A stretch of 64,000 nt of DNA from an uncultured Gammaproteobacteria bacterium (GTDB taxonomy: Bacteria; Patescibacteriota; Microgenomatia; Daviesbacterales; UBA10151): assembly GCA_964392925.1 (NCBI GenBank), contig CAYMRP010000004.1:71184-135183 (forward strand), given 5' to 3'. The notes under the pieces are model-generated. The model was given only the letters and a program-made list of their open reading frames with translations, was not told the origin of the DNA and did no database searches. The position numbers and the translations under genes were made by a program. Below, in pieces: positions 13,529 to 32,237 of the stretch. Positions within the stretch are counted from its first letter, which is position 1, and each line of letters starts with the position of its first letter.

Positions 13529-16500
13529 ATGAATCTGGGAATAGATGTTATGGGTTTAAACATGAGCAATTTAGATATCATCATCCCGGTTAAAAACGAA
13601 GAAGGCAATATTCTTGCCTTAGTCCAGAGAATCAGTCAAGCAATGAAGCTTGGAAATCTTTCCTATAAAATGATTTTCATCGATGATAATTCAAGCGATA
13701 AAACTGTCTCCTCTCTAGAAATACTAAAAAAAATCTATCCAATTGAAATACATCCAAAAAAGGGCAAGCCAGGCAAAGCTTATTCAATAATTGAGGGAGT
13801 CGATTACGCAACCAGCGATAACATCGCCATGATCGATGCCGATCTTCAATACCCCCCAGAAGTTTTGCCTCAAATGCTCAAACAATTAGCAGATTCAGGG
13901 GTAGTAATCGCCCGCCGGAAAACAGCCCAGGGCTCAAAGTTGCGAAGATTCGTCAGTAAAGCTTTTACCAATGTATTTGGCGGCCTTCTTCACAACCTAA
14001 ACGTTGATGTTCAATCAGGACTCAAAGTCTTCAAAAAAGAAGTAATTGAAAAAATAGACCCCAAGAAAATAACACCTTGGACTTTAGACCTCTCACTGGT
14101 TTTAGTTGCCCGGGATTTAGGATTAGGCATTTCAGAAGTTGATATTGAATTTGATAAAAGAAAAAATGGTAATTCAAAAGTAAGTTTAGTCAGAACTTCA
14201 ATTGAAATCGGCAAAAACGCTTTAAAGCTTAAGTTCTTTAGAAAAAGACAATTCACTATTAAACCAACTAAAGAAAACTCCATGATCGGTGGAGGCATAA
14301 TACTTAAGGGTAAAAAATATATTACTCACACCACCTTAGAAGATAAGCATCTCGCTCTCAAAACATTTAGCACCACCCAAAAGTTCATTATTGGCTCACT
14401 AGTTACCGCTGCCATAGTTGGTTTAATCACAAATCCTCTTGCTGCAATTTTAACTATAGTCGCGATTCTCAGCGTAATTTATTTTATTGACGTTGTTTTT
14501 AATATTAGTGTTGTTCTGAAGAGTCTTCATTTTCCGCCAGAAATTAAAATACCCTCGGAAGACATCGAGGCTGTAGATGATAGTAAATTACCAACCTATA
14601 CAATTCTCTGTCCTCTCTATCGAGAAGCGGATGTATTGCCGCAGTTTTTGGAGTCTATCGAAAAACTTGATTGGCCTAAAAGTAAGCTTGATGTCATACT
14701 TTTACTTGAGGAAGATGATAAAGAGACTGTCGCTGAAATTAGTAAAAAAAGACTTCCATATTACGTCAGGGCTTTAATTACTCCCGACTCTCAGCCTAAA
14801 ACAAAGCCCAAGGCCTGTAACTACGGTTTAGCCCATGCTAACGGTGAATACCTAGTTATTTATGATGCCGAAGATCGACCTGATCCAGACCAATTAAAAA
14901 AGGCCTATCTCGGCTTTAAAAATTCCGGATCTAAAATTGTCTGCTTGCAGGCAAAATTGAACTATTTTAATCCTCACCAAAATTTACTCACCCGTTTCTT
15001 TACCGCTGAATATTCACTCTGGTTCGATGTTATGCTACCGGGACTCCAGTCTATTAATACTGTGATCCCTCTGGGCGGTACCTCAAATCACTTCAGAACC
15101 GCCACCTTAAGAGATCTCGAAGGATGGGATCCATTCAACGTCACAGAGGATTGTGACTTAGGAGTGAGAATCTTTAAAAAAGGCTGGTCAACAGCAATTA
15201 TCGATTCAATAACTCTAGAAGAAGCCAATTCAAATTGGGCTAATTGGATCAGGCAGCGTTCAAGATGGCTCAAAGGTTATATGCAAACCTACCTGGTTCA
15301 TATGCGTAATCCTTTCAGTTTTATTGCTCAAAACGGCTGGCACGCTTTTGTTTTTCAACTAATTATTGGTGCCCGTATCTCGTTCATGCTTATTAACCCG
15401 ATTCTTTGGTTAACGACTCTTTCCTATTTTGCTCTCTACGCCTATGTTGGTCCGGCAATTGAAGAGATTTTTCCTTCAGCAATATTCTATATGGCGGTCT
15501 TTTCTCTTTTAGTCGGTAACTTCTCATATATCTATAACTACATGATAGGTGCCTTAAAGCGCGAGCACTATTCGCTTATTAAGTTCATTTTCTTGATCCC
15601 AATCTATTGGCTGGTGGCATCCTACGCAGCTGGAGTGGCTGCTTATCAATTAATTGTTAAACCTCACTATTGGGAAAAAACTGTCCACGGTCTCCATATC
15701 AAAAAAATGACTATAGAGAGTATAAAAGAAGAAATACTGCCCACGCTTACTGCCGATTTAATTAAGCCCTCTGACGGAAGAATGTCATTCTACAAGAAGC
15801 TATCCTTACCAAAAGCTTTAATACCAAGTGCAATTTACACCTTAGCTACTTTTATCTCAGGGATTCTTAACCTAGGATTTAATGTCTTCTTAGGTAGAGT
15901 AATCAGCTTTGAGAACTTAGCGACCTTAAGTTTAGTAAGCAGTTTTTTGTATTTTTCTTCAGTGCCTCAGAACTCCTTACTAAGCACTATCACCCATAAA
16001 GTTGGTTATCTAGAAGGTAAAGGTAAGTTAACATCAGCACTTCATTTTTTTAAACAGGCAACAAATAGATCGCTTTTAATATCTTTTATTGCCTCGGCTG
16101 CATGGCTTTTTTCAATTCCCTTTCTAATGGATTATTTCCAATCAGATGATATATTTCCTTTTCTTCTCTTTACCCCTGTTTGGACACTTGGTACGGTTTT
16201 CGCTCTGATGAAGGGGTTTTTAGTAGGGAGATTAATGCTTGCCAGAGTAGGGTTTATTCTTTTTGCTGAAACTGTATTTAAATTTAGCATAGCGCTCATT
16301 TTTATATATTTTAATCTTTCCCACTGGGCATTTGTTGCTCTACCAGGATCGATTGTGCTCAGCGCAATTCTGATAATTCTTATCTCGGGAAAACTACTTA
16401 AAGTGCCAGAGAATGCTCCACAGTTAAAAAATGAATTTAGCTTTCCTCTTAAGTTCTATTCTGCTTCTGCCCTATCAATACTTGCACCCATTGCCTTTTT

Positions 16501-18274
16501 AAGTATGGATGTCCTCTTGGCTAAGCACTACTTAGCTCCCGTTGAAGCGGGTAAGTACGCCTTGCTTTCTGTCATTGGAAAAATCATTTTCTTTATGGGT
16601 GCATTAGCTAATCAGCTAGTGCTGCCTCTGGTTAGTCGAAATGAGGGCGCGGGTCGAAGTTCAGAAAAGTTTCTTGGCTGGGTATTTATTGGAACATTCT
16701 TAGTCACAAGTCTGGGCTTCATTTTCTGGGGTTTACTTGGAGGCTATACAGTACCTCTAGTTTTCGGAGAAAAAGCCAATGAAATAACACAATTCTTAGA
16801 AATATTCACTTTTACAATGATATGTTTCTCACTCTCAAGAGTATTAGTGTCTTATTTTCTGGCCAAAAAAGTTTACACCTTCCCTATTGTTTCATCTCTA
16901 ATTGTTATTCTCCAATTCGCTTTAATTTATTTTAATCATTCCGACTTAGGGTCAATAGTTTTTGATATGTTCTTGGTCGGAGTAATTGATTTACTTGCTA
17001 TGGCTATTCTTTATTTATTCTTGCCGTATGTAAAAATATTTGAAAATAATGTTAGCGATTTATTTGGATTATTTACCCGATCACTTCCTTTTAGTAAAGC
17101 TGAAGCTAACAAAAAAGTCCGAATTCTCATATTCAATTGGAGAGATATCAGCCATGTCTGGTCTGGTGGAGCAGAGAACTATATTCATGAATTAGCAAAA
17201 CTTTGGGTGGAACAGGGTTATCAGGTAACTATTTTTTCAGGTAACGATAACTTAAGTAAACGGTATGAAGTTTTAGACGGTGTACAAATAGTTAGAAGGG
17301 GTGGGTTCTATACAGTCTACTTCTGGGCAGTTTTATATTATATTTTCCGTTTCCGCGGTCTATATGATTTAGTTATAGATTCTGAAAACGGCATCCCTTT
17401 CTTTACGCCTCTATACGTTGGAAAAGCAAAGCTTTTATTAATTCATCATATCCACCAAGAAGTTTTCAGAAATCACCTTTCTTTGCCACTGGCAATTTTT
17501 GCATCATTCCTTGAAGGCAAACTTATGCCATTTATTTATAAAAATCAAAAAGTTATAACAGTTTCTGAATCTTCAAAGCAGGAAATCTTAAAACTGGGCA
17601 AGGATGTATTTGGTGCAATTGAAATTGTTAATCCTGGAATTCACACTCATAAATTCCTCACCCTAAAGAAAACAACAAATCCATCATTCTTATATCTCGG
17701 CCGACTGCAGCCTTACAAGAATATTGAAGTAGCAATTAAAGCATTCGCACAAGTTATTTCTAAATACCCTGATGCCACTTTAACAATTGCCGGTTTTGGT
17801 GAAAGTCTGATATCTCTTAAAAAACTAGCCGGCCAATTATCAATAGAAAAATCAGTTATTTTTACTGGCCGTGTCACTGATGAGAGGAAGTACGAGCTGT
17901 TATCAGAAAGCTGGGTTATGCTTCAGCCCTCAATGATTGAAGGCTGGGGGATCACTGTTATAGAAGCAAATGCGTCCGGAACTCCTGTAATCGCCTCAAA
18001 TGTTAACGGTCTTCGTGATTCAGTTGTCGATGGTAGAACCGGCATGTTAGTTAGACCAAAAGATGTTCAGATGTTTGCCCGGGTCATGACAGATCTTATT
18101 GAAAATAAAGAATTTAGAGATTACTTATCAGCTCAGGGAATTAAGTGGTCACAAAATTTTTCTTGGAAAAAACAGGCTGAAAAATATACTCACATTATAG
18201 AAGAGACCCTCTCTGATCATACCAAGAAAGGTATAAATTTAACAAAATCATGGAGTTTAAATTTTAGAAAGTAA
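13529..18274 (+). CDS. Giant multidomain glycan synthase: GT2 (polyprenyl-P-sugar synthase-like) + processive GT2 (QxxRW) + polysaccharide-exporter-like TM domain + GT4
   Basis: A single 1581-aa ORF without internal stops. Domain 1: IIIPVKNEEGNI...FIDDNSSD...DADLQYPP. Domain 2: YTILCPLYRE...DAEDRPD...TEDCDLGVRIF...QRSRWLKGYMQ. Then about 14 predicted TM helices (polysaccharide biosynthesis/Wzx-like). C-terminal GT4: EGWGITVIEANASGTPVIAS. An alternative start is the ATG at 13562 (MSNLDIIIPV). Confidence 0.8.
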   Translation: MNLGIDVMGLNMSNLDIIIPVKNEEGNILALVQRISQAMKLGNLSYKMIFIDDNSSDKTVSSLEILKKIYPIEIHPKKGKPGKAYSIIEGVDYATSDNIAMIDADLQYPPEVLPQMLKQLADSGVVIARRKTAQGSKLRRFVSKAFTNVFGGLLHNLNVDVQSGLKVFKKEVIEKIDPKKITPWTLDLSLVLVARDLGLGISEVDIEFDKRKNGNSKVSLVRTSIEIGKNALKLKFFRKRQFTIKPTKENSMIGGGIILKGKKYITHTTLEDKHLALKTFSTTQKFIIGSLVTAAIVGLITNPLAAILTIVAILSVIYFIDVVFNISVVLKSLHFPPEIKIPSEDIEAVDDSKLPTYTILCPLYREADVLPQFLESIEKLDWPKSKLDVILLLEEDDKETVAEISKKRLPYYVRALITPDSQPKTKPKACNYGLAHANGEYLVIYDAEDRPDPDQLKKAYLGFKNSGSKIVCLQAKLNYFNPHQNLLTRFFTAEYSLWFDVMLPGLQSINTVIPLGGTSNHFRTATLRDLEGWDPFNVTEDCDLGVRIFKKGWSTAIIDSITLEEANSNWANWIRQRSRWLKGYMQTYLVHMRNPFSFIAQNGWHAFVFQLIIGARISFMLINPILWLTTLSYFALYAYVGPAIEEIFPSAIFYMAVFSLLVGNFSYIYNYMIGALKREHYSLIKFIFLIPIYWLVASYAAGVAAYQLIVKPHYWEKTVHGLHIKKMTIESIKEEILPTLTADLIKPSDGRMSFYKKLSLPKALIPSAIYTLATFISGILNLGFNVFLGRVISFENLATLSLVSSFLYFSSVPQNSLLSTITHKVGYLEGKGKLTSALHFFKQATNRSLLISFIASAAWLFSIPFLMDYFQSDDIFPFLLFTPVWTLGTVFALMKGFLVGRLMLARVGFILFAETVFKFSIALIFIYFNLSHWAFVALPGSIVLSAILIILISGKLLKVPENAPQLKNEFSFPLKFYSASALSILAPIAFLSMDVLLAKHYLAPVEAGKYALLSVIGKIIFFMGALANQLVLPLVSRNEGAGRSSEKFLGWVFIGTFLVTSLGFIFWGLLGGYTVPLVFGEKANEITQFLEIFTFTMICFSLSRVLVSYFLAKKVYTFPIVSSLIVILQFALIYFNHSDLGSIVFDMFLVGVIDLLAMAILYLFLPYVKIFENNVSDLFGLFTRSLPFSKAEANKKVRILIFNWRDISHVWSGGAENYIHELAKLWVEQGYQVTIFSGNDNLSKRYEVLDGVQIVRRGGFYTVYFWAVLYYIFRFRGLYDLVIDSENGIPFFTPLYVGKAKLLLIHHIHQEVFRNHLSLPLAIFASFLEGKLMPFIYKNQKVITVSESSKQEILKLGKDVFGAIEIVNPGIHTHKFLTLKKTTNPSFLYLGRLQPYKNIEVAIKAFAQVISKYPDATLTIAGFGESLISLKKLAGQLSIEKSVIFTGRVTDERKYELLSESWVMLQPSMIEGWGITVIEANASGTPVIASNVNGLRDSVVDGRTGMLVRPKDVQMFARVMTDLIENKEFRDYLSAQGIKWSQNFSWKKQAEKYTHIIEETLSDHTKKGINLTKSWSLNFRK

Positions 18275-18276
18275 TT

Positions 18277-18840
18277 ATGGGAAAAACGATATCAATCATC
18301 TTACGAGTCTTTAAAAAAACACAAGCCAAAATATATACCAGATTTTGGAAACTATTTCTAAAATCCTTAGGGAAATACAGTGTTCTATATCCTGGGAGCA
18401 CCTTTGCCGGGGCATGTAATATCCAAATAGGTCATCACGTATTTATTCATCAGGGAGCACATTTATATACTGGCGGCAGCAAAATTACCATTGGGAACTA
18501 CGTACTCATTGGTAGAAACTGCTCAATTATCGCCGCCAACAGAGACTATGCGAATTGGACTCGGCCTATTTATTTTGGTACAGAATATGTGAAAAAACCT
18601 GTAGTTATAAAAGATGATGTTTGGATTGGTGAACGGGTAATTATTACCGCTGGTGTGACCGTTGGGCGAGGAGTTGTAATAGGTGCGGGTTCAATCGTAA
18701 CAAAAGATGTACCTGATTTCGCTATTGTTGCTGGTGTTCCTGCCAAGTTAATTAAATATCGATTTGATAAAAAAACTATTCAGCGAGCGATGCGGATAGA
18801 CTTGTCCAAATTCAAAGATATCAAAAAGGAGAAAAAATAA
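18277..18840 (+). CDS. Hexapeptide-repeat (LbH) sugar O-acetyltransferase
   Basis: Left-handed beta-helix hexapeptide repeats (IGRNCSIIAAN...VWIGERVIITAGVTVGRGVVIGAGSIVTKDVPDFAIVAGVPAKLI), like WbbJ or maltose acetyltransferase. Confidence 0.85.
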   Translation: MGKTISIILRVFKKTQAKIYTRFWKLFLKSLGKYSVLYPGSTFAGACNIQIGHHVFIHQGAHLYTGGSKITIGNYVLIGRNCSIIAANRDYANWTRPIYFGTEYVKKPVVIKDDVWIGERVIITAGVTVGRGVVIGAGSIVTKDVPDFAIVAGVPAKLIKYRFDKKTIQRAMRIDLSKFKDIKKEKK

Positions 18841-20198
18841 TGTCCGGAATAATTACTAGAATTTCTACTTTGGCTTCCAAAAACAAACTTATAACTACAG
18901 CTGGATTATTTGTGGCAGCCTCGATGTTGGCAAATATATTCAATTGGCTTTTAAGTATCCTAGCCGGCCGGGTTTTAGATACAGATGAATTTGCAGTCTA
19001 CGCTGTTTTTGTAAGCATATTAGGCATTCTGTCTGTTCCCTCAAACGCTTTAGCAACAACAATCAGCAGATACTATGCTTATTATTCGGGAAAAGAGAGC
19101 AGTTCAGATATTAAAGCTTTGATTAACTATTATAAAAAAGTAGCGCTGATTTTAGGAGTTCTTGGTGTCCTTATAGTCTATTTCACAAACGACTATATCA
19201 GAGCTTTTTTAAAGCTACCATCAGATAGCATGGTCGTTGGGTTTGCACCCGTTGCTTTCTTTCTTTTTACGGCGGCTTACTTCAGAGGAATTTTAAAAGG
19301 AAAACTAAAATTCGGCATAGTTGGACTGATGATGATAGTAGAAACATTTACTAAGCTGATACTTTTATTCTCCGGATACATGTTAAACCTTCCTGTTCTC
19401 GTAATAGCCATCATTTCCTTACCACTTTCTTGGTCGCTTGCATCTCTGATCGGGTTTTTAGCTACTTTTGAAAACGATGATAAGACTAGAATCACAAAGA
19501 AAACAGGAACCTTAGAATTTTCAAAATTAGATAGTCATTTTTTTATGACAAACGCTTTTTTTGCTAGTGTTGGTATGATGCTAATGAATAGTGTCGATAT
19601 TTTGCTAGTAAAACATTATTTTTCCGATTTTGAAGCTGGAACTTATGCTCTATTAAGCCTTTTCGGGAAAATTCTTTACTTTGGAGGTGGAAGCTTCATA
19701 GAATTATTTGTTCCACTCACCGCTAAGTCACATGCGAAAAATTCTAACAGTAGAAATCAATTTTTTAAACTTCTCGTATTGGTATCATCAGTAGCGATCC
19801 CCACACTAATTCTATTTCTTTCATTCCCAAACTTCACAACATACCTATTCTTAAAGGATAAAGGCTACCTAGTAATTCCGTATTTGGCACCTTATCTTAT
19901 TGCAACAACATTCCTGCTTTATACCAATTGTTTTAATGCATATAACACGGCTAAAAAACATTTCATCTCGACATACCTGATAACTGCGATGGCATTAGTC
20001 CAGGGAGCTTTGATTATGATATGGCACAAATCGCTTACTGATATTGTAAACATTGTTCTTTTCACTCAAGTTGTACTTTTTGTACTAGTTCTGTTTTATG
20101 AATTTTTTATATCTCCAAAACACTCTGAAGAAAAATCAACTTCGTCACTATGGACAAAATGGTCTCCAATTTGGGAAAGGACTAACAACAATGTCTAA
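18840..20198 (+). CDS. Polysaccharide biosynthesis protein / Wzx-type (MOP superfamily) flippase
   Basis: 452 aa with about 12 predicted TM helices in the typical Wzx layout; adjacent to GT genes. Confidence 0.65.
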   Translation: MSGIITRISTLASKNKLITTAGLFVAASMLANIFNWLLSILAGRVLDTDEFAVYAVFVSILGILSVPSNALATTISRYYAYYSGKESSSDIKALINYYKKVALILGVLGVLIVYFTNDYIRAFLKLPSDSMVVGFAPVAFFLFTAAYFRGILKGKLKFGIVGLMMIVETFTKLILLFSGYMLNLPVLVIAIISLPLSWSLASLIGFLATFENDDKTRITKKTGTLEFSKLDSHFFMTNAFFASVGMMLMNSVDILLVKHYFSDFEAGTYALLSLFGKILYFGGGSFIELFVPLTAKSHAKNSNSRNQFFKLLVLVSSVAIPTLILFLSFPNFTTYLFLKDKGYLVIPYLAPYLIATTFLLYTNCFNAYNTAKKHFISTYLITAMALVQGALIMIWHKSLTDIVNIVLFTQVVLFVLVLFYEFFISPKHSEEKSTSSLWTKWSPIWERTNNNV

Positions 20199-21195
20199 AA
20201 CTTTATTAGTACAACAGCAACAGCTCCACTTTTTCTTGGTGATGCTTATGTCGTTATTCAGAAAAAAACAAACAGCCATCTCGCCTCTCCCAGCTTTAGT
20301 AAATGGCTTCGCTCTAGAGAGGGAGCTAAATTCAGGTGAGTTAATAAAGCCTCACAGAATAGGAATATACAAAAATGATCGCGGACAAAAAGGTGTAGTT
20401 AAATGGTGGAGTGGAAACAAAAAAACATTTGCAGCTATATCATTAGAGAATGAACTTTCAATGGCCAAATTATTAGAGAAATTAAACCATCGGACAATTA
20501 AAAATCAAAAACCAAATTTGACTCAAATTGGAAGTGCACATGTTATCACAAGTAGAGTAAATGAAAAAACAGTTTTTATAATGTCTGAATTTCATGAGGG
20601 AAAACTTCTTAGAGAAGTAGCAAAGGCGATCCAGATTAAAGAGTATAAACGGGCACTAAACTATTTAAGTAGTCTATCTGGCAATTTAACCCAAATTGAA
20701 ATTGACGCGCTTCCCAAGAGAACATATATTGATTACCTATTGCTTTACCCAGCTTTGTTAAGTGTCTCTATTCTAAGACAACCGAGATATTTTTGGACAT
20801 TTATAAAAGGCCTGCCCCCAGTACTTTTCTCACTTACAAAAATTAGAAAACATCCTTTAACCATAGTGCATCGAGATCTTCACACAATGAATATTATCTA
20901 TTCTCCATCTCGCACAACCATCATCGATCTACAGCGTGCTGTTCTAACTTACGGGTTATATGAGCTGGTAACAACTTTAGCAGTTGAATGGGACAACAAG
21001 GAATTACGTCAGGCGATTCTAGATTATATTTACTCATCATATTCGAATTCTTTAACTATCTTTAGAGGACTAATGATTTATTTTGCAACTCATGCTCTGA
21101 CTGCCAATAACTTGCCGGAGTATTATCTTAGCCGCTACAAAGCAATGCTTAACTTCGCGGTCTATAAATATTCCAACTATTATTTAAAAACATGA
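20191..21195 (+). CDS. Kinase-fold phosphotransferase (APH/choline-kinase-like) within the glycan locus
   Basis: Catalytic-loop-like IVHRDLHTMNIIY followed by IIDLQ (the HxDxxxxN...D pattern of APH/ChoK/Kdo-kinase folds). The track start at 20098 overlaps the upstream gene by 100 nt; the ATG at 20191 is more likely. Confidence 0.5.
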   Translation: MSKTLLVQQQQLHFFLVMLMSLFRKKQTAISPLPALVNGFALERELNSGELIKPHRIGIYKNDRGQKGVVKWWSGNKKTFAAISLENELSMAKLLEKLNHRTIKNQKPNLTQIGSAHVITSRVNEKTVFIMSEFHEGKLLREVAKAIQIKEYKRALNYLSSLSGNLTQIEIDALPKRTYIDYLLLYPALLSVSILRQPRYFWTFIKGLPPVLFSLTKIRKHPLTIVHRDLHTMNIIYSPSRTTIIDLQRAVLTYGLYELVTTLAVEWDNKELRQAILDYIYSSYSNSLTIFRGLMIYFATHALTANNLPEYYLSRYKAMLNFAVYKYSNYYLKT

Positions 21196-22905: not shown

Positions 22906-24074
22906 AAAGTAAACAAATTGATGTTGTAGTGAAATATTTTCACCCTGTTGCGGCGGGTATAGAAACTAACATACTTAATACATATAGTGTGCTTGCCCAA
23001 ATGGGTTGGGATGTTCGTATTCACACATCTACAAACACTCACACGGGTAAGGACATACTTCCAAAATTCGAAATAATCAGAGGCTTAAAAGTATATCGCT
23101 ATAAACATCATTGGTATGGAATACAGCCTAATATAGACTATACGAAAACTTCTTTAGTTTGTATCCATAATTTTAATATCTTTCCTCATATTCAAATAAT
23201 GACTAAAGCGATACTGGGTAACCTAACGAAAACAAAGAAGTACGGGCTGGTCTTGACCCCTCACGGGGGTTACACTCCTGATTGGAACGTTTTTGGACCA
23301 ATATCAAAACAAATTAAGAAAATCTATCACAGAACCCTAGGTAAAATTCTTATTAATTTATCTTGTGATGCAATAAGAGCAGTCTCAGTATGGGAGAAAG
23401 ACCAAATAATTAGCCAGGGAGTTAATAAAGATATTATTCAAGTTATAACAAATGGGGTAGAGAATGAAGCATTTGTAGATTTAAATAAAGAAGCAAGTAA
23501 ACAGGTCAAGAATCTCGCTCACTCATTAGGCGACTATATAATCCAGGTTGGAAGAATATACCCAATTAAAAACTACGAAACGACAATTCGAGCTCTTAGT
23601 CTGATCCCAGGTAACCTAAAATATGCTATTACTGGAGCAGATTCAGAGAAATCCGGTTATTTTAATTCCCTCAAAAAATTAATTAAATCGTTGGGGCTTG
23701 AAGAAAGAGTTGTCTTCACGGGAGTCATTTCCGGGGTCGATAAATTCTATCTCATGAATAAAGCCCAGATGATGGTCCATATGGCACATTGGGAGAGTTT
23801 TTGTAATGTGGTTCACGAAGGAATGAGCCAAGGATTAGTCTGTATCGTGGCCAACAATACTGCACTTCCATATCTAATAAAAAATAATGTGAACGGATAC
23901 TGTGTTGAAACTTTTGACTATAAATCTTTAGCAAGCAAGATTGAATATGTCATAAAAAACAAAAACAAGAAAGAAATTATTCAAATCGAAAAGAATAATA
24001 AAAATATTGGTTCTCAGGAAACTTGGGGTGCAGTTGCTGAAAAAATGAATAACTTGTATCTAAAGCTAATATGA
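22902..24074 (+). CDS. Glycosyltransferase family 4 (group 1)
   Basis: GT-B architecture with the C-terminal motif HMAHWESFCNVVHEGMSQGLVCIV (E-X7-E-like). Confidence 0.75.
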   Translation: MKSKQIDVVVKYFHPVAAGIETNILNTYSVLAQMGWDVRIHTSTNTHTGKDILPKFEIIRGLKVYRYKHHWYGIQPNIDYTKTSLVCIHNFNIFPHIQIMTKAILGNLTKTKKYGLVLTPHGGYTPDWNVFGPISKQIKKIYHRTLGKILINLSCDAIRAVSVWEKDQIISQGVNKDIIQVITNGVENEAFVDLNKEASKQVKNLAHSLGDYIIQVGRIYPIKNYETTIRALSLIPGNLKYAITGADSEKSGYFNSLKKLIKSLGLEERVVFTGVISGVDKFYLMNKAQMMVHMAHWESFCNVVHEGMSQGLVCIVANNTALPYLIKNNVNGYCVETFDYKSLASKIEYVIKNKNKKEIIQIEKNNKNIGSQETWGAVAEKMNNLYLKLI

Positions 24075-24964
24075 AAAAGAAATTAAAAATATCAATCGCT
24101 ATACCTACTTACGAAGCCGGAGAAAGTCTTGTTGTCACACTCCGCTCTATCTACAATCAAACTTTTTATTCGGAAATAGATAAAATTTATGTGGCTATAG
24201 ATGGTAATAAGATAAAAAGCAAAATCATGAATAAAATAAAAAATCCAAAGCTGAGTCTACTTCACTATAAAAGAAGAGAAGGCCAAGCCCAAAGAATTAA
24301 TAATTTATTCAAAAAATCGAGTTCTGACATTTTGGTATTAACCAACGATGATATCTACTTAACCAATACCTTAGTCGAGGAAATTGTCCGCACTTATAAT
24401 GGTGACCTGATATTAGGAAATGTCCTAGGTATCAAGCCTCAGACATTCATTGAGAGACTCGTCTTGGTAGGAGCAAATATTAATAAAAGAGTCGCAGAAT
24501 CCTGGAATTCAGGCGACAATTATCTTTCCTGCAACGGCAGACTGATCATACTTTCTAAAAAATTATATAAAAGAATAGAGCTGCCGAAAACAATTTGGAA
24601 TAGTGATGCTTATATTTATTTCTATGCAAAAAAACTTAAATCTGAAGTTAATATCGGCAAAGAACTAAAAGCATATTTCAGAGCTCCTAGCAATCTTGAA
24701 GAGCATATTAAGCAGAGTGATAAGTTTCAAATGTCTCGGGAGGAAAATATGTCTTATTTTAAAGAGGATATATCTAAACAATACGACATACCTAAAGCTC
24801 TAAAATTTAAATCCCTCATTCTTGAATTCCTATTAAACCCAGTGATTACTTTTTGCTACGTACTTATTTATATCTATACAAGAACCCATAGAAAATACTA
24901 TAATATACAACATAAGGATTTTTGGGAAACTGATAAAACAACTAAGCAATTGAAAATATCATGA
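24071..24964 (+). CDS. Glycosyltransferase family 2
   Basis: ISIAIPTYEAGESL at the N-terminus, a DGNK/TNDDIYL DxD region, and a C-terminal TM helix. Confidence 0.75.
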   Translation: MKKKLKISIAIPTYEAGESLVVTLRSIYNQTFYSEIDKIYVAIDGNKIKSKIMNKIKNPKLSLLHYKRREGQAQRINNLFKKSSSDILVLTNDDIYLTNTLVEEIVRTYNGDLILGNVLGIKPQTFIERLVLVGANINKRVAESWNSGDNYLSCNGRLIILSKKLYKRIELPKTIWNSDAYIYFYAKKLKSEVNIGKELKAYFRAPSNLEEHIKQSDKFQMSREENMSYFKEDISKQYDIPKALKFKSLILEFLLNPVITFCYVLIYIYTRTHRKYYNIQHKDFWETDKTTKQLKIS

Positions 24965-26511
24965 AAAAAATAATTACTTCAATACTATTAATAATCTTCA
25001 GTTTCGTAATTCTAACTCTTTCTATAAGGGGCATAGCTGGTAATCCTAGTGATGCTACCATTAACGAACCGTACTGGAAAGATAATGGTCCTTTAGAGCT
25101 CTCACCTGAAAGAGGTAAATTTGCTCTGACATATTCCTTCGTTGAGGATAATTCTGTTCATTTCTCGGTTCCAATAGCAAAATTCTCGACACCCGACTTA
25201 GGTTATAGTAAAGGTAATTATGTCTCACTTTTTGCACCAGGCGTAGCCTATATAACAATACCAGGATATATTATAGGTAAGGAATTTGGCTCTTCGCAAG
25301 TTGGCACTTATGCTGTAATAGCATTATTCGCGATAATGAACGCAGCCTTAATAAATTTAATCCTCCTAAGGCTTGGTGTAAGGAGTATTTTATCTGCTAT
25401 AAGTAGTATCATTTTTCTATTCGCGACACCGGCTTTCGCATATGCCGTATCTCTATATCAGCATCATATATCCACATTTATAATACTTCTAAGTGTATAT
25501 CTGCTGCAAAGATTTAAAGGAATTTGGCCACTGGTAATTATATGGTTTATCTTAGCCATATCTTTAGCAGTAGATAATCCAAATCTTTTTATGGTTTTCC
25601 CGATCGGGATATATGCATTAGGGCGAGTAGTTTACGCAAAAATTGATCAGAACAAGGTTAAGGTAGGAGTGAAGACATTAGCAGTTCTGACTTTAGTCAC
25701 TGCTTTAGTCCCTCTTTTACTTTTCGGGTGGTTCAACAAAATATCTTATGGCGACGCTATGAGACTTGGAGGTACTGTGGCATCGGTTAAAGAAATAGAT
25801 GAACAAGGTAAGCCAGCTGCTCCAAAAAATACAGGAACAACTAATGTTGCCCAGTTTATCAATCCTGATCAGCAAAAAAAGTCAGCTCTCAGATTCTTTA
25901 AGACCAGAAATATATTAAACGGCTTTTATATTCATTTTATTAGTCCTGACAGAGGCATTATATATTTTACACCGGTCATACTATTGGGTTTCATTGGAAT
26001 GTTTTATTTTTACAGGAAAGATTCGGGATTAACGTCTCTTCTTATTGCAATCATGGGAACAAATATCCTGCTGTATTCTATGTGGGGTGATGCATGGGGA
26101 GGATGGGCGTTTGGTTCGAGATATTTAGTACCTTCTTATGCAATACTCGCCATTTTCCTTGGTGTCGCCCTAAACAGGTTCCATCGGAATATTATATTTA
26201 TACTTGTGTTCTTATCTCTTTTTGTATATTCGGCAGCTATAAATACCGTAGGTGCTATTACTTCCAATAGAAATCCTCCTCAGGTTGAAGTTTTGGGTCT
26301 GGAGCAGCTAACAGGCAAACAAGAAAAATACACTTATGAAAGAAATTTTGACATGCTAGGCATTAATCAATCTAAATCTTTTGTATTTAATACTACAGTT
26401 AACAAATATTTCACTGCATGGGAATACTACTATTTCCTGACGGGGCTAATTATTCTCTCAGTGGCATTGCCATTAATTACACTTAACGCACTAGACTGGA
26501 GAAGAAAATGA
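24961..26511 (+). CDS. Polytopic membrane protein, putative GT-C-fold glycosyltransferase (ArnT/PMT-like)
   Basis: 516 aa with more than 10 predicted TM helices, a first extracytoplasmic loop carrying an acidic motif (FVEDNS), and a location beside a polyprenyl-P-sugar synthase-like GT2. The assignment rests on topology and context only. Confidence 0.45.
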   Translation: MKKIITSILLIIFSFVILTLSIRGIAGNPSDATINEPYWKDNGPLELSPERGKFALTYSFVEDNSVHFSVPIAKFSTPDLGYSKGNYVSLFAPGVAYITIPGYIIGKEFGSSQVGTYAVIALFAIMNAALINLILLRLGVRSILSAISSIIFLFATPAFAYAVSLYQHHISTFIILLSVYLLQRFKGIWPLVIIWFILAISLAVDNPNLFMVFPIGIYALGRVVYAKIDQNKVKVGVKTLAVLTLVTALVPLLLFGWFNKISYGDAMRLGGTVASVKEIDEQGKPAAPKNTGTTNVAQFINPDQQKKSALRFFKTRNILNGFYIHFISPDRGIIYFTPVILLGFIGMFYFYRKDSGLTSLLIAIMGTNILLYSMWGDAWGGWAFGSRYLVPSYAILAIFLGVALNRFHRNIIFILVFLSLFVYSAAINTVGAITSNRNPPQVEVLGLEQLTGKQEKYTYERNFDMLGINQSKSFVFNTTVNKYFTAWEYYYFLTGLIILSVALPLITLNALDWRRK

Positions 26512-28166
26512 TAAAAATAAATAAGTTAGCTGAAATAGAAATAGAGCTTAATGTCTCTTTACTAGACAAAATTAAAGATTTTTTCTCTAAGTATGGACTC
26601 TACTTCATAATTTTAATACTTTCAGGCATTTCCGTAGGCGGATTTCTATACTTTCTTGAAAACGGATTAGGGCTCGCATACAACGATGCCAGATCCCATT
26701 TAAATATTGGCCGAAGAGTAGTAGAAGGGTTAAAGCCAGGTTTCGCCCAAATTGGTAGTGTCTGGTTACCTCTACCTCACGTTCTAATGATTCCTACAAT
26801 CTGGAATGATTTTATGTGGCACACAGGTTTATCCGGTGCAATTGTCTCGATGTCCTCCTTTATTGGAACAGGTGTATTAGTCTATAAGTTCCTTCAAAAA
26901 CTAGGAGCAGGATTAATGGGTAGATGGATGGGAGTTCTTGTGCTGGTAGCAAACATTAATATTCTATATTTGCAATCTACCGCAATGACTGAACTATTAT
27001 TACTTTTCACAATGACCGCCGCAGCCTACGACCTAATGATCTGGCACCAATCAAGCAGAATTATTAATCTGGTTAAAGCCGCATTTTGGATAATGTTATC
27101 AACTCTCGTCAGATATGATGGTTGGTTCCTATTTTTCGTATCAGTTATTCTTATAGTCATTAATCTTATGCGGGTGGGTAGTTTTAAAATAAAGGATCTC
27201 CCTGCTAAATATTTCAAAATAGAGGGAGTCGTCATTGCTTTCTGTACGTTAGCAGGTCTTGGAGTTTTTCTATGGTTACTATGGAACCTATTAATTTTTA
27301 AAGATCCGTTTTTCTTTGCCTTTGGCCCATACTCAGCTCATGCCCAGCAACAGCAATTAGAAAGTGCGGGGGAGTTAATTACCAAACATGATTGGTTTCT
27401 TTCAGCTAAGTTTTATACATATGCTCTAGCCTATAATTCCGGAGCTTTCTCAGCACTTCTTGGGATATTTGGGTTAGTAGCTATTTGGTTCGATAAGAAG
27501 CTATTAACACCGGTAAAATTTGCAGTGTTTGCTTTAGTTGCACCACTTTTATTCAATATATTAGCATTATACCTTGGGCATTCAGTTCTATTTATCCAAG
27601 GACTTTCTGGTGATGTCTGGTTCAATGTCCGATACGGCATTATGATGATGCCATCAATAGCAATCTTTATTGGTTTTCTTATCGATAGGGTTAAGAATCT
27701 TAGAGCAGTCCTTATCGGGCTTTTACTACTTACGATTTTCTTCCAGTTCCAAAACTTTGATGCAGTTACTATTGATGATGCCAGAGTTGGATCTTCTCAG
27801 AAAAATGTCAGCGAAGTATCAGATTGGCTATCTCAAAATGCTAAAGATAGGGATGGGTTCATTTTAATCTCAGCAGCCTCACACGACGCTATTATTTTTT
27901 CATCTGGATTACCAATGAAAAAATTTATCCATGAAGGTACCGGCAGATATTGGGAATCCGCAACAACAAATCCTGAAAGATGGGCAAGATGGATTATTGC
28001 CAGAACTCATGACAATAACGATTCTACGTGGAGAGCTGTATCGCAAACTCCAGATATTAATAACTATATTCTTGTTAAGTCTTACCCGTTTGCAGATATC
28101 TACGAACTAAAGCCAGAGTTCCTCCCTAACCTCAATACAAAACCTATCTTAGGCAAGCAAAAGTAG
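26508..28166 (+). CDS. Polytopic membrane protein, putative GT-C-fold glycosyltransferase
   Basis: 552 aa with an N-terminal block of about 11 TM helices and a C-terminal soluble extracytoplasmic domain; translationally coupled to the preceding gene. Confidence 0.45.
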   Translation: MIKINKLAEIEIELNVSLLDKIKDFFSKYGLYFIILILSGISVGGFLYFLENGLGLAYNDARSHLNIGRRVVEGLKPGFAQIGSVWLPLPHVLMIPTIWNDFMWHTGLSGAIVSMSSFIGTGVLVYKFLQKLGAGLMGRWMGVLVLVANINILYLQSTAMTELLLLFTMTAAAYDLMIWHQSSRIINLVKAAFWIMLSTLVRYDGWFLFFVSVILIVINLMRVGSFKIKDLPAKYFKIEGVVIAFCTLAGLGVFLWLLWNLLIFKDPFFFAFGPYSAHAQQQQLESAGELITKHDWFLSAKFYTYALAYNSGAFSALLGIFGLVAIWFDKKLLTPVKFAVFALVAPLLFNILALYLGHSVLFIQGLSGDVWFNVRYGIMMMPSIAIFIGFLIDRVKNLRAVLIGLLLLTIFFQFQNFDAVTIDDARVGSSQKNVSEVSDWLSQNAKDRDGFILISAASHDAIIFSSGLPMKKFIHEGTGRYWESATTNPERWARWIIARTHDNNDSTWRAVSQTPDINNYILVKSYPFADIYELKPEFLPNLNTKPILGKQK

Positions 28167-28175
28167 TATTCTAAT

Positions 28176-29186
28176 ATGATCAAAAAAGTATTAATAGTCT
28201 CAGCTATAACAATAGTCATATTCTTGTTATTCTCCTACTTCAACTCAAAAATTGAAGAATATCATAAAGAATCTGCTCTAAAAAGAATTCATCTGTGGGA
28301 TTTTCGTTCGGTTGATACTGTAAAATATTCAAGAGATCTCGCACGCGAAATGATGGAGGATCAAGAATTCGATACCATTATTAGTAAACAAGTTAGTGAC
28401 ATAGCATTGCTAGGAGCTTCACATATTGCCATAAGTACTCCATACGATGCCGAATTCCTACCTTTCCTGAAAAGATGGGTTACCGTTGCAAGAGAGAAGA
28501 ATCTTAAAGTCTGGTTTAGAGGTAATTTTTCAGGCTGGGAAAATTGGTTTGGCTACGAAAGAATGACCAGAGAAGAACATAAAATATTACTCAAAGAGTT
28601 TATTGAAAATAATCCTGGTCTATTTGAAGATGGAGACATTTTTACCTCATGTCCTGAATGCGAGAACGGTGGACCAGGGGACCCGAGGCATAATGGTGAT
28701 GTAATAGGACATCGTAAATTCCTAATTGATGAATACAATATTTCTAAAGAATCATTTGCCAATATTGATAAGCAAGTTCAGCCTGGTTTTTATTCTATGA
28801 ATTATGATGTCGCAACTCTAGTTATGGATGAGGATACAACAAATAAGCTCGGAAACTTAGTAGTTATTGATCATTACATCAAAGATCCTGAAAAACTTGC
28901 CAAAGACGCAAGAAAGATAGCTGAGAAATCAAAAGGTGAAGTTGTTCTGGGTGAATTTGGTGCACCGATTCCTGACATACATGGAGCAATGACAGATAAG
29001 GCACAGGCTGACTGGATTAACCAAGCTTTGCAAGAAGTGAGTCTTGTTGAAGAAGTAACTGGTGTAAATTACTGGACTAATGTTGGAGGTTCTACCGAAT
29101 TGTGGAATTCAGGAGGTACTCCCAAAGCAGCTGTAGATATGATAAGAGAATATTATAAAAAAACAAAACTAATATCTCCACGTTGA
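28176..29186 (+). CDS. Membrane-anchored extracytoplasmic protein, possible clan GH-A (TIM-barrel) glycoside hydrolase
   Basis: N-terminal TM anchor and a GEFG motif (VLGEFGAP) resembling the nucleophile strand of GH5-like enzymes. The match is weak. Confidence 0.35.
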   Translation: MIKKVLIVSAITIVIFLLFSYFNSKIEEYHKESALKRIHLWDFRSVDTVKYSRDLAREMMEDQEFDTIISKQVSDIALLGASHIAISTPYDAEFLPFLKRWVTVAREKNLKVWFRGNFSGWENWFGYERMTREEHKILLKEFIENNPGLFEDGDIFTSCPECENGGPGDPRHNGDVIGHRKFLIDEYNISKESFANIDKQVQPGFYSMNYDVATLVMDEDTTNKLGNLVVIDHYIKDPEKLAKDARKIAEKSKGEVVLGEFGAPIPDIHGAMTDKAQADWINQALQEVSLVEEVTGVNYWTNVGGSTELWNSGGTPKAAVDMIREYYKKTKLISPR

Positions 29187-29266
29187 TTTAAACCCATAGT
29201 CGTGATACAATAACCCATAATGTTTTTTATTATGATAAAAAACATGCGAAATTTTTAATAAAACTT

Positions 29267-29905
29267 ATGAAGATAGTGTTCGTTATTTTTCTCGTTATTT
29301 TCAGCCTATTAATTAATTCAGGTCAAGCTCTCGCGTACGAAATACCTACCTTTACCTCCTGTGTTAACCCTCAAGGAGATCTCAAAGCTAACTATGAAAC
29401 TGGTACTCACGGAATTGCTGGCCGTCCAGGATTATTTGAAGGAAAAGACACCGTCTATGCAGTCGCGAGTAACGCCATTACTCAATGCTTTTGCCCAACC
29501 GATGGTAATGGTGTTCAGACAAATTTCTGGAAAATACCCGCTTTGACTCAATCTAAAATTAGTGTTCTTGAGGCTCAGGGTTGGATTTATATTCCCAACG
29601 GAGCATTGTGGGGATTAGAAAACGCTCCGTACCTAGCAAAAAATTCAGACTATAGCTGTAAATCATCAGGTGGAAGTAACGATAGTTCAGGTAGTTCTGG
29701 AGGTAGTAATGGATCTGGATCATCAGGCAGTAATTCTGGAGCTGGGGGCTCCTCATCTCTTTCAGTATCGGGCGGAGTAGGGCAGGTTTTAGGTCTCGCC
29801 TCAACCGGAAATACAATTTTTGTCTTAGGCACTGCTCTAACTTCAGGAATATCCCTGCTTCTGGGCCTTATTCTAAAAAGAAGAACAACAAATTTATCCA
29901 AGTAA
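29267..29905 (+). CDS. Sortase substrate: secreted protein with a Gly/Ser-rich stalk and C-terminal LAxTG (LASTG) sorting signal
   Basis: Signal peptide, a GGSNDSSGSSGGSNGSGSSGSNSGAGGSSS stalk, then LASTG + a hydrophobic stretch + KRRTT at the C-terminus. It lies immediately upstream of the sortase gene. Confidence 0.65.
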   Translation: MKIVFVIFLVIFSLLINSGQALAYEIPTFTSCVNPQGDLKANYETGTHGIAGRPGLFEGKDTVYAVASNAITQCFCPTDGNGVQTNFWKIPALTQSKISVLEAQGWIYIPNGALWGLENAPYLAKNSDYSCKSSGGSNDSSGSSGGSNGSGSSGSNSGAGGSSSLSVSGGVGQVLGLASTGNTIFVLGTALTSGISLLLGLILKRRTTNLSK

Positions 29906-29906
29906 A

Positions 29907-30485
29907 ATGGCAAAATATAATGAGGGTACAAAACTAACTCAGTCTGTTTTTTTAGGTAACCTATTACTTATTTTTGGTCTAATAAGTTTTATAGCCTTCA
30001 GCTACCTGATATTCCAAAGATATAATCCTCAAAACTTAGCTTTTGATTTACCTGAAGCAATCGCCGTCTCTGATAATGAAAATTCTGAACTTCAGCCTAT
30101 TGGTTTAAGAATAAATTCTATAGATTTAGCTCTCTCAATTACTCCTGCGGAAATTAAAAATAATAATTGGCAGGCTTTTCCTAACGCAATTTCCTATCTT
30201 AAAACTACGGTTGTTCCAGGAGCCAAAGGTAATAGCGTTCTGTATGGTCATAACTGGCCAAATCTATTAGGTGATCTAAAAAAAGTAAAACCCGGCGACA
30301 ATATTAATATAATTTACTCAGACAACTCATCAAAAGATTTTGAAATCGAATTTATAACAAAAGTACTTCCTTCCGAAACCTCTATCCTTAAAGATTCACC
30401 AGACAATAGGGTAACTCTTTACACCTGTACCGGATTTCTCGACTCAGAAAGACTAGTGGTTATCGCAAAACTTCTTAATTCTTAA
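29907..30485 (+). CDS. Sortase (class E-like, LAxTG-specific)
   Basis: N-terminal TM anchor, catalytic His (VLYGHNWP), TLxTC motif (VTLYTCTG) and a C-terminal Arg region. The LAxTG substrate is encoded adjacent. Confidence 0.8.
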   Translation: MAKYNEGTKLTQSVFLGNLLLIFGLISFIAFSYLIFQRYNPQNLAFDLPEAIAVSDNENSELQPIGLRINSIDLALSITPAEIKNNNWQAFPNAISYLKTTVVPGAKGNSVLYGHNWPNLLGDLKKVKPGDNINIIYSDNSSKDFEIEFITKVLPSETSILKDSPDNRVTLYTCTGFLDSERLVVIAKLLNS

Positions 30486-30732
30486 TTAGTCCTGTTAGAA
30501 TAGCTCTGTGGCCAAAGCAATAATTAGATTTATCAAAAATGACACAGTTTTTTGGCTATTCTTTATAGTCCTTTGTTTTATTATGCTGACATTTATTATG
30601 AAGAAAGAGGATATAAAAGTAACTATAACTTTGAGTGAGCCTTACGATAATAAAGTGATCACATTATTTGGTCGTTGACTGTGACTGGTCCGCTTGCCAA
30701 AAAAGAATGATAGTGGTATAAAACCTGTTGGG

Positions 30733-32194: not shown

Positions 32195-32237
32195 AGTCCT
32201 AGCTGAGCTTGCAAGTTATATTTTAGGCTAGTCTAAT

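Follow-up and report, generated by a model that had tools for sequence, protein, structure and literature searches.

A compact locus of 13 open reading frames (ORFs), at positions 13529-30485 of a 64-kb stretch of DNA (hereafter the window) from a Microgenomates-type genome of the Patescibacteria (Candidate Phyla Radiation, CPR), very probably encodes an envelope glycoconjugate pathway that includes glycosyltransferase steps of the GT-C type outside the cytoplasmic membrane. On the basis of sequence comparisons and structure models, we moderately favour a more specific reading in which the locus would be a Microgenomates assembly line for a cell-envelope glycopolymer. In this assembly line, intermediates linked to polyprenyl phosphate would be finished outside the membrane, with the GT-C enzymes acting on a glycan acceptor. 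The components that matter most for this reading are a four-module protein that we call the megasynthase, two large membrane proteins (M1 and M2), an anchored protein (P336), and a terminal pair comprising a protein with an LAxTG sorting motif and a sortase. These components and their coordinates are as follows.

13529-18274, plus strand: megasynthase of 1581 residues with four modules (DPMS-like GT2, processive GT2, Wzx-like membrane domain, GT4); two GT2 matches and one GT4 match in Pfam
13535-14194, plus strand: megasynthase residues 3-222, polyprenyl-phosphate sugar synthase-like GT2 (DPMS/GtrB/ArnC type); PDB and NCBIfam matches
14582-15514, plus strand: megasynthase residues 352-662, processive beta-glycan-synthase-type GT2; BcsA at 4e-10 in the PDB, PgaC/IcaA at 5.5e-23 and CelA at 2.6e-22 in NCBIfam
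15761-17113, plus strand: megasynthase residues 745-1195, multi-pass membrane domain, paralogue of the free-standing Wzx-like flippase; BLASTP against 18840-20198, E 1e-20, 24% identity over 408 residues
17114-18274, plus strand: C-terminal GT4 (GT-B) domain of the megasynthase; Pfam Glycos_transf_1 2.6e-42, Glyco_transf_4 5.5e-12
24961-26511, plus strand: M1, predicted GT-C(A)-fold membrane glycosyltransferase with about 13 transmembrane (TM) helices and a long first outer loop (residues 22-93); predicted structure and fold search
26508-28166, plus strand: M2, predicted GT-C(A)-fold membrane glycosyltransferase with a C-terminal soluble domain (residues ~415-552); predicted structure, fold search and family homology
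28176-29186, plus strand: P336, N-terminally anchored extracytoplasmic protein; N-terminal anchor, invariant E161, E163, N164 and GEFG with E260
29267-29905, plus strand: sortase substrate of 212 residues, with a signal peptide, a ~105-residue domain with four invariant Cys, an S/G-rich low-complexity linker, LASTG, a TM segment and a KRR tail; translation and family alignment
29907-30485, plus strand: sortase; Pfam Sortase 68.8 bits (cut-off 26.6), with His in YGHN, Cys in LYTCTG and Arg in SERLVV

An earlier note on this DNA, made from the letters and their ORFs, had described contiguous plus-strand genes, mostly with overlapping stop and start codons, and the ORF listing reproduces its coordinates and junctions for all 13 genes. 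Neighbouring genes overlap by 1 nucleotide at 18840, by 4 nucleotides at 21192, 22902, 24071, 24961 and 26508, and by 8 nucleotides at 22090. The remaining gaps are 1-9 nucleotides long, and the sole sizeable one is the gap of 80 nucleotides before the LAxTG gene. Most domain assignments of the same note likewise hold, with matches above the Pfam gathering scores for GT2, GT2 and GT4 (megasynthase), a hexapeptide transferase, Polysacc_synt, an APH fold, GT2, CE4, GT4, GT2 and the sortase.

M1 and M2 as predicted GT-C glycosyltransferases

The proposal that the two large membrane proteins are GT-C-like, also made in the earlier note, is upheld by structure prediction and Foldseek searches rather than by direct sequence searches. 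An AlphaFold2 model of M1, computed from a 47-sequence alignment, has a pLDDT of 90 and a pTM of 0.91, and its 26 best Foldseek matches in the PDB are all GT-C enzymes (EmbA/B, ArnT, ALG3, Pmt4, AftA/B, STT3 and ALG9). In structure M1 also resembles AftB, PimE, Emb and AftD, and the model predicts the fold of the GT-C(A) glycosyltransferases. The long first outer loop holds two residues, E62 and D79, that are invariant in the 47 sequences, an alignment that spans only identities of 47% and above. In three genomes M1 is fused behind cytoplasmic GT2-CE4, GT2-GT4 or CE4 domains, with no TM segment between them, which shows that its N-terminus is cytoplasmic. At E<=1, GT-C Pfam models match none of the 47 family members. 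The sole sequence match of M1, and the only curated sequence model that it touches, is NCBIfam NF047440 (LA_3751/LA_3752 family putative glycosyltransferase, Leptospira), which is reached over residues 83-266 (E 2.3e-9) at 36.6 bits, far below the family cut-off of 200; this family is itself uncharacterised.

The AlphaFold2 model of M2 is of moderate quality (pLDDT 75, pTM 0.74). Its top 35 Foldseek matches are all GT-C proteins, including STT3 (9e-6), ALG12, ArnT (with the top TM-score, 0.52), DPY19, PglB, ALG9 and PMT, and M2 too is predicted by its model to adopt the GT-C(A) fold. In the fold searches with M1 and M2, transporters appear only at probabilities below 0.2. An exhaustive HMMER search with an M2 profile returned 2675 representative clusters, of which 828 lie below 1e-30. 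Among 89 full-length representatives of this family, 54 match PMT_2 (PF13231; GT39/GT83-type), the best at 5.9e-9, and 10 match PMT (PF02366); six relatives that are fused to other domains score 27-35 bits in the PMT_2/PMT test, in which the cut-off is 26.1. The profile search against GT39, GT83 and other GT-C families that the earlier note had proposed gave no direct match for M1 or M2 of the window, and for M2 this includes PMT and PMT_2. Since relatives of M2 match PMT_2 and PMT, M2 itself is placed by transitive homology in the PMT/ArnT-type GT-C superfamily, of which it is a putative divergent branch. The earlier note had weighed its GT-C reading against the outcome that the two proteins match non-glycosyltransferase families such as transporters, and this outcome did not occur, given the GT-C fold matches and the presence of PMT_2 in M2 relatives.

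Only five columns are invariant in the 89 M2-family sequences, which share about 30% identity: D60, W86, E162, R202 and W256. D60 lies a few residues past TM1, at the position of the catalytic Asp in GT-C enzymes. According to the model, all five residues would be located at outer-face helix ends, and M2 is thus predicted to have both the invariant Asp after TM1 and the conserved outer-face polar residues of a GT-C enzyme. M1 and M2 each have more than 1000 relatives, all unnamed and without Pfam domains, and PDB sequence searches with either protein, using single sequences and family profiles, returned no matches; M2 has no NCBIfam match either. The named close relatives of the two proteins belong to bins such as Daviesbacteria, Levybacteria, Woesebacteria and Roizmanbacteria.

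An hhalign comparison of M1 with M2 found no relationship (probability 2.9%); the two proteins are not recent paralogues. The only likeness in this comparison is confined to a short, conserved loop that precedes the last helices, at residues ~374-391 of M1 (MWGDPWGGWAFGSRYLIP) and ~365-382 of M2 (GLSGxTWFNVRYGIMMMP). The positions of the two loops are equivalent, and the similarity is not significant.

The megasynthase as a predicted source of lipid-linked sugar and glycan backbone

The N-terminal domain of the megasynthase (residues 3-222) has seven PDB sequence matches, all of which are DPMS, GtrB or ArnC proteins (4e-19 to 4e-11). The best of these are Pyrococcus DPMS (5mlz, 4e-19), GtrB (5ekp, 8e-16) and ArnC (3e-12). 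Matches in NCBIfam to ArnC (1.2e-15) and PgfS (3.6e-19) remain below every equivalog cut-off. A DAD motif is present at residue 103, and a hydrophobic segment follows the domain at residues 306-324. This combination of similarity, DxD motif and membrane anchor is that expected from the sequences of polyprenyl-phosphate sugar synthases, and we predict the same activity for this domain.

The earlier note had placed a polyprenyl-phosphate-sugar-type GT2 beside the GT-C proteins. Such a GT2 is indeed encoded in the locus, as the N-terminal domain of the megasynthase, but the small GT2 that adjoins the GT-C genes, at 24071, is a generic GT-A enzyme. Its PDB matches are TarP (2.7e-4) and a generic glycosyltransferase (6p61, 0.077), and none is a DPMS, GtrB or ArnC. 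On these PDB matches the small GT2 was rejected as the polyprenyl-phosphate-sugar synthase in favour of the megasynthase domain. Given that a GT2 of the synthase type is present, the further suggestion of a glycosylation step outside the membrane that uses a lipid-linked donor is a well-founded inference.

The second domain (residues 352-662) carries the motifs DAED446, TED539 and QRSRW576 and is followed by hydrophobic segments at residues 608-701. It has the D,D,D,Q(Q/R)xRW pattern and the membrane helices of processive membrane GT2 synthases of the BcsA, PgaC and chitin synthase type, to which it is assigned as a putative member; its PgaC and CelA matches fall below the equivalog cut-offs. 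The third domain (residues 745-1195) and the product of the free-standing Wzx-like gene (18840-20198) have about 11 hydrophobic segments each. Both proteins are predicted to act as flippases of the Wzx/MOP type, by a Polysacc_synt match and multi-pass topology and, for the megasynthase domain, as a paralogue of the free-standing protein. Full-length megasynthase homologues of 1550-1565 residues with matching domain order are encoded in two other loci (L003 and L004), which indicates that the protein is not an assembly artefact, and the four-part order is found in many loci.

Conservation of the gene cassette

When one genome was scanned for each GTDB species, an M2 relative was detected in at least 402 of them, and the analysis covered 80 loci, each representing a species. 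Neighbouring genes were counted by tblastn with the window proteins at E 1e-6, a procedure that undercounts short and divergent proteins. The counts obtained are as follows.

M1 directly upstream of M2: 72/72 loci
P336 within 6 kb downstream of M2: 68/71 loci
GT4 module of the megasynthase within 10 kb upstream: 46/53 loci
At least one small GT2: 53/53 loci
CE4 deacetylase: 27/53 loci
Kinase: 18/53 loci
LbH transferase: 7/53 loci
LAxTG homologue downstream: 39/54 loci
Sortase downstream: 35/54 loci

Gene order is therefore kept as a unit among relatives, as the synteny check proposed in the earlier note was meant to establish, and because the arrangement recurs in related genomes it cannot be ascribed to chance. 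An independent regular-expression search located a protein with a sorting signal in 37 of 54 loci, and 15 of 54 loci have neither such a protein nor a sortase nearby. The resulting layout comprises a fixed core (from the megasynthase to M1-M2-P336), a variable block of tailoring genes, and, in many loci, an LAxTG/sortase tail. Relative to the window proteins, median identities are 67.6% for the processive GT2, 62.5% for M2, 54% for P336, 53.6% for the megasynthase GT4, 45% for M1, and about 41% for the LAxTG protein and the sortase. The value for M2 (~62%) is in the range of the few comparable housekeeping neighbours (PPIase and NrdR).

Many of the metagenome-assembled genomes in GTDB that carry the cassette in full synteny (L007, L013, L015, L019, L023 and others) have records titled as uncultured Gammaproteobacteria, Bdellovibrionales, Pseudomonadales, Bathyarchaeia or Eisenbacteria. 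These titles are probably wrong.

Gene fusions link the core components

Proteins from other genomes join components of the locus in single polypeptides. A DPMS-like GT2, a processive GT2 (55% identical to the window domain) and an M2-like protein are fused in P0292. In a Ktedonobacteraceae protein (P0334), a processive GT2 is followed by M2-like and GH113 domains, and P0345 consists of a processive GT2 and an M2-like protein. M2-like sequences are also joined to GH5 (P0250), M2 is joined to a P336 domain (45% identical) and CarboxypepD_reg (P0251), and M1 is joined to M2 in P0242. Further fusions combine GT2, CE4 and M1 (in L009), GT2, GT4 and M1 (in L016), or CE4 and M1 (in L066), none with a TM segment ahead of M1, an arrangement that places GT2a, CE4 and GT4 of the window in the cytoplasm. 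Taken together, the fusions join every core component physically in some genome, and they join M2 specifically with polysaccharide synthase and glycan-active hydrolase domains. This evidence points more towards a glycan as the probable acceptor than towards a decorated sortase substrate.

P336, the LAxTG protein and the sortase

P336 had been called a GH-like anchored protein in the earlier note. The N-terminal anchor is present, but the GH-like part of the description is weakly supported. P336 of the window has no direct Pfam match. Glyco_hydro_cc is weakly matched by 6 of 36 homologues (best 0.0041), and most P336 homologues have a C-terminal CarboxypepD_reg domain. The P336 domain in the P0251 fusion passes the threshold of this model (26.2 bits, cut-off 21). 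An hhalign comparison of the P336 profile with the GH5 and GH113 domains of the fused relatives gave probabilities of 5-6%, which are not significant, and a PDB profile search with P336 returned spurious matches only. We tentatively consider P336 a candidate glycosidase of the clan GH-A-like type.

The note was correct that the locus ends with an LAxTG protein and a sortase: the translation contains LASTG, a hydrophobic stretch and KRR, and the final gene product matches Pfam Sortase. The two proteins have the features of a sortase and its substrate and are predicted to act as such a pair. Within its family, the LAxTG protein has a domain with the motifs GTHGI, QCFC, GIQTNWW and WGL, then a linker of variable length, VLGLAxTG(N/D), a TM segment and a basic tail. 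The LxxTG motif is kept in 44 of 47 neighbouring homologues. No Pfam or NCBIfam match was found for this protein, and its relatives, all of about 190-220 residues, are labelled hypothetical. The sortase scores below every NCBIfam class cut-off, the best class being F (3.8e-10). A DsbA-like thioredoxin (Thioredoxin_4/DSBA), encoded at 2343-3113, is a candidate oxidase for the four invariant Cys residues of the LAxTG domain.

The linker of the window protein is 45 residues long and S/G-rich. Among relatives, the median Ser plus Thr fraction of the linker is 0.28, and some linkers are acidic with 5-11% Ser and Thr. The idea that a Ser/Thr-rich linker is a conserved glycosylation target is weakened by this variation in composition.

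Proposed pathway and competing explanations

We propose that the megasynthase would produce both a beta-linked glycan backbone and a polyprenyl-phosphate-sugar, the latter being moved to the outer leaflet by the flippase domain of the same protein. M1 and M2, probably as a pair, would then add or join sugars on the glycan at the outer face, using lipid-linked donors. The GH-like P336 would trim or transfer the product, and the small cytoplasmic enzymes would provide lineage-specific decorations. The sortase-anchored LAxTG protein would be a frequently co-encoded, wall-anchored partner that might serve as binder, anchor or acceptor.

Several points weigh against this proposal. Every function in the locus is assigned by homology or fold, and the view that the locus is a single operon is inferred with the gene overlaps as its only basis. 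The role of the processive GT2 in supplying a backbone for the GT-C enzymes is drawn only from the fusions and co-conservation, and the assignment of P336 as a glycosidase is weak. Neither M1 nor M2 of the window directly matches a GT-C Pfam model, and the most conserved loops of M2 are the least confident parts of its model. Neither the locus nor the rest of the window showed an initiating phosphoglycosyl transferase, a Wzy, an LCP ligase or a flippase of the GtrA type.

An alternative explanation is that M1 and M2 would serve as transporters or as structural proteins of the membrane, and that an ordinary variable exopolysaccharide cluster lies beside a sortase by happenstance. The failure of both proteins to match GT-C Pfam models or PDB sequences directly fits this explanation. 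However, it is almost certainly wrong given the GT-C results of the fold searches, the PMT_2 matches of M2 relatives, the invariant acidic residue just after TM1, and a gene order that is kept across 80 species. A more serious competitor, which we nevertheless judge unlikely, is protein O-glycosylation of the Pgf or PMT type, in which M1 and M2 would move sugar from the product of the DPMS-like domain to Ser/Thr residues of the LAxTG linker, or of other secreted proteins, before the sortase anchors them to peptidoglycan. It would account for the LAxTG protein that follows the cassette in 37-39 of 54 loci and the sortase in 35 of 54, for the composition of the linker in the window, and for the matches of M2 relatives to PMT and PMT_2, which are domains of the protein O-mannosyltransferase type. 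There is also precedent, since Pgf of Streptococcus mutans consists of a GT2 and two GT-C-type membrane proteins that act on LPXTG adhesins (PMC5856776), and streptococcal GtrB with a GT-C modifies Ser/Thr-rich disordered regions (PMC12041528). Yet M1-M2-P336 is near-universal, and 15 of 54 loci have neither a sorting-signal protein nor a sortase nearby. The linkers are not consistently Ser/Thr-rich, and fusions join M2-like proteins to processive synthases and to GH5-, GH113- and GH128-like domains, which act on glycans. Moreover, a PgfE-type epimerase is missing from the locus and the PgfS match reaches 69 bits against a cut-off of 500, so the predicted proteins lack two expected parts of a Pgf-type system, a PgfS equivalog and the epimerase.

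In an en-bloc route resembling the archaeal Agl pathways, the GT2, GT4 and CE4 enzymes would build an oligosaccharide on polyprenyl phosphate primed by the DPMS-like domain, Wzx would flip it, and one GT-C (M1, or an STT3-like M2) would act as polymerase or ligase and pass the whole unit to its acceptor; the other GT-C would add a final sugar from a polyprenyl-phosphate-monosaccharide. The GT2-CE4-M1 and GT2-GT4-M1 fusions, which tie enzymes that build the unit to M1, agree with this scheme, as do the two Wzx-type modules of the locus and the STT3 oligosaccharyltransferases that are the best Foldseek matches of M2 (9e-6). A classical phosphoglycosyl transferase is absent, as it is from dolichyl-monophosphate-based archaeal pathways, of which AglJ/AglD/AglR/AglS/AglB of Haloferax is one. 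We consider the en-bloc route decidedly unlikely because the sequence relatives of M2 match PMT_2 and PMT and not STT3, the highest TM-score of M2 is to ArnT (0.52), no WWDxG-type motif is visible in the C-terminal domain of M2 (on inspection of the consensus only), and the highly conserved processive GT2 would be left without a role. A sortase-anchored proteoglycan is very unlikely; in this scheme, the two GT-C enzymes would assemble the glycan on the LAxTG protein or transfer it there, with that protein as covalent acceptor or obligatory carrier. If it were true, the main wall glycopolymer of Microgenomates would be attached to peptidoglycan by way of a protein and a sortase instead of an LCP-type ligase, and an archaeal Agl-like route of glycosylation from a lipid monophosphate would operate in a bacterium. 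More improbable still is a lipoglycan route like that for mycobacterial lipomannan and lipoarabinomannan (LM/LAM), in which GT4 enzymes would make a glycolipid anchor on the cytoplasmic face that is flipped and then extended outside by M1 and M2, yielding a glycan anchored in the membrane rather than linked to the wall. The component set (DPMS-like synthase, GT4s, flippase and two GT-Cs) does parallel Ppm1, PimA/B, PimE and MptA/B, and no LCP-type wall ligase is encoded in the window; however, the processive GT2, the GH-like partner and the frequent sortase pair would be left unexplained, and a lipid acceptor has no direct evidence in its favour.

Relationship to known systems

Our preferred reading, a glycopolymer assembly line with GT-C steps at the outer face, does not introduce a new principle. 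The underlying logic of a polyprenyl-phosphate-sugar synthase, a flippase and a GT-C is already well known from GtrA/GtrB/GtrX, ArnC/ArnD/ArnEF/ArnT, CsbB/GtcA/YfhO and GacI/GacL, and here too a GT2 of the DPMS/GtrB/ArnC type, flippases and GT-C proteins are encoded together. The cytoplasmic CE4 beside these components recalls ArnD of the Arn system, which deformylates the ArnC product before flipping. Other three-component systems combine the synthase and the GT-C with a MATE/MOP flippase, as in the set of polyprenyl-phosphoribose synthase, MATE flippase and GT136 (PMC11127046), and the locus shares with these a flippase of the MOP/MATE type in place of GtrA. Unlike three-component systems, it has synthase and flippase as domains of one 1581-residue protein that also holds the processive GT2 and a GT4, two tandem GT-Cs that no Pfam model matches directly, and a near-obligatory GH-like partner. 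It is also a conserved core feature of the lineage and not an optional serotype-converting addition.

The combination of a GT2 with two polytopic proteins of the GT-C type is shared with S. mutans Pgf (PgfS, PgfM1, PgfE and PgfM2; PMC5856776) and with streptococcal GtrB/PgtC2 (PMC12041528). The targets of these systems include sortase-anchored LPXTG adhesins and disordered Ser/Thr-rich linkers (PMC5856776, PMC12041528). Apart from the lack of PgfE and the low PgfS score, the locus differs from Pgf in its additional processive synthase, GH-like protein and many cytoplasmic glycosyltransferases.

The synthase-dependent exopolysaccharide systems BcsA/BcsZ (cellulose) and PgaC/PgaB or IcaA/IcaB (PNAG) offer a parallel in their membrane-embedded processive GT2 with D,D,D,QxxRW, their extracytoplasmic glycosidase-like partner and the CE4 in the locus. 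However, no PilZ/c-di-GMP module and no partner of the BcsB or PgaD type was seen here, the CE4 is predicted to be cytoplasmic, unlike PgaB and IcaB, and a GT-C enzyme is coupled to the synthase, in other genomes by fusion, which is a feature that the classical synthase systems lack. The assembly of arabinogalactan and LM/LAM in mycobacteria and corynebacteria (Ppm1, PimA/B, PimE, MptA/B, Emb and Aft) is similar in that a polyprenyl-phosphate-sugar synthase, GT4 enzymes and several GT-Cs act in series on an envelope glycan. There is no detectable sequence relationship between the two, the organisms belong to different phyla, the Microgenomates genome is tiny, and neither a fused megasynthase nor a sortase pair occurs in the mycobacterial and corynebacterial assembly.

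CPR bacteria make up a large share of bacterial diversity, and their envelope chemistry is almost unknown. According to Méheust et al. (PMC6744442), a sortase is near-ubiquitous in Microgenomates, and membrane families enriched in this group were listed as hypothetical. No description of the cassette in CPR was found in the literature. The present analysis proposes a fold and a pathway role for two of the hypothetical Microgenomates membrane families as putative GT-C glycosyltransferases, and reports that their genes, with those for a four-domain megasynthase and a GH-like protein, form a cassette that is strongly conserved. The module of processive synthase, GT-C and glycosidase also occurs outside CPR, in a Ktedonobacteraceae (Chloroflexota) genome. 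An investment of 17 kb in a reduced genome suggests a function central to the cell surface, possibly in host attachment.

Accessory enzymes of the variable block

The genes between the megasynthase and M1 encode a free-standing flippase and a set of small enzymes.

18277-18840, plus strand: hexapeptide-repeat (LbH) acyl/acetyltransferase, accessory; Pfam Hexapep 3.2e-13
18840-20198, plus strand: free-standing flippase of the Wzx type (MOP superfamily); Pfam Polysacc_synt 34.8 bits, cut-off 28.2
20098-21195, plus strand: APH/kinase-fold phosphotransferase, accessory; Pfam APH 32.5 bits, cut-off 23.2, with an HRDLHxxN motif
21192-22097, plus strand: GT2a, small cytoplasmic GT-A without a TM segment; Pfam GT2 1.6e-23, best PDB match GalT1 at 1.6e-7, with DPMS only at 3.9e-4
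22090-22905, plus strand: CE4 deacetylase, predicted to be cytoplasmic; Pfam Polysacc_deac_1 1.3e-25, no signal peptide or TM segment found
22902-24074, plus strand: GT4 glycosyltransferase; Pfam Glycos_transf_1 1.4e-27
24071-24964, plus strand: GT2b, small generic GT-A and paralogue of GT2a (29% identity); Pfam GT2 1.5e-10, best PDB match TarP

The kinase gene probably starts at the ATG at 20191 rather than at 20098. An extracellular role for the CE4 protein, like that of the deacetylases PgaB and IcaB, was considered and rejected, given that the fusions put CE4 on the cytoplasmic side. The earlier note had taken the acetyltransferase, deacetylase and kinase to imply a modified polymer. All three are present by Pfam, but they are accessory, being found in 7, 27 and 18 of the 53 related loci, respectively. 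In three other loci (L001, L003 and L004), the kinase, LbH and CE4 genes of the variable block are replaced by S-adenosylmethionine (SAM) methyltransferases, or by a PIG-L deacetylase fused to a FemAB-like Acetyltransf_6 together with a second Acetyltransf_6. These replacements suggest lineage-specific N-deacetylation, and perhaps aminoacylation, of the glycan.

Genomic setting and other features of the window

The GC content across the locus is 34-38%. Scans for promoters and terminators from 12.4 to 31.8 kb gave fewer promoter-like sites than shuffled sequences and terminator-like sites at chance level. A promoter-like match (TTGATT-17-TACAAT, with an extended -10 element containing TG) is present at 29183-29211, in the gap before the LAxTG gene. 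The site may be an internal promoter that serves the substrate and sortase genes, but it is a match to the consensus only, and the scan yielded more sites in shuffled sequence. An Rfam scan of the window returned one tRNA only, and no regulatory RNA was found in the locus.

The M1 and M2 proteins have identical counterparts encoded on a 542-kb contig from a wastewater metagenome (ERZ965181). The window and this ERZ965181 contig (k127_151207, L087) are identical from 25.3 kb to about 29.5 kb. Beyond this point, in the compared region of 29400-34000, they differ by about 1-23% per 200 bp in most bins and by 40% in the last full bin. The divergence begins within the part of the LAxTG gene that encodes the S/G-rich linker and runs through all downstream genes, which suggests a strain switch or an assembly junction at the low-complexity linker. 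For the same reason, the possibility that the LAxTG protein is hypervariable between strains was rejected.

A group of genes for peptidoglycan remodelling lies directly upstream of the locus and encodes a VanW-like protein (9965-10639), a YkuD L,D-transpeptidase (10642-11343, minus strand), a DUF1565-like anchored protein (11418-12503) and an S11 D,D-carboxypeptidase (12558-13439). The L003 locus has genes for a YkuD protein and a BacA protein immediately downstream of its cassette. Downstream of the locus in the window are genes for a cyclophilin, YdjM, NrdR and ribonucleotide reductase, and the rest of the window is housekeeping. Features elsewhere in the window include a membrane H+-pyrophosphatase (41629-43632), a second APH-family kinase that is unrelated to the locus (APH_6_hur, 47257-48102) and a class I lysyl-tRNA synthetase (PF01921, 49037-50599). 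On the minus strand, 51850-53358 encodes a 502-residue low-complexity protein rich in Pro, Ser, Ala and Thr, with one hydrophobic segment (residues 381-399) and no Pfam match. Of all 2-kb bins in the window, the one with this gene has the highest GC content (0.467), and the gene product could be a surface or glycosylated protein.

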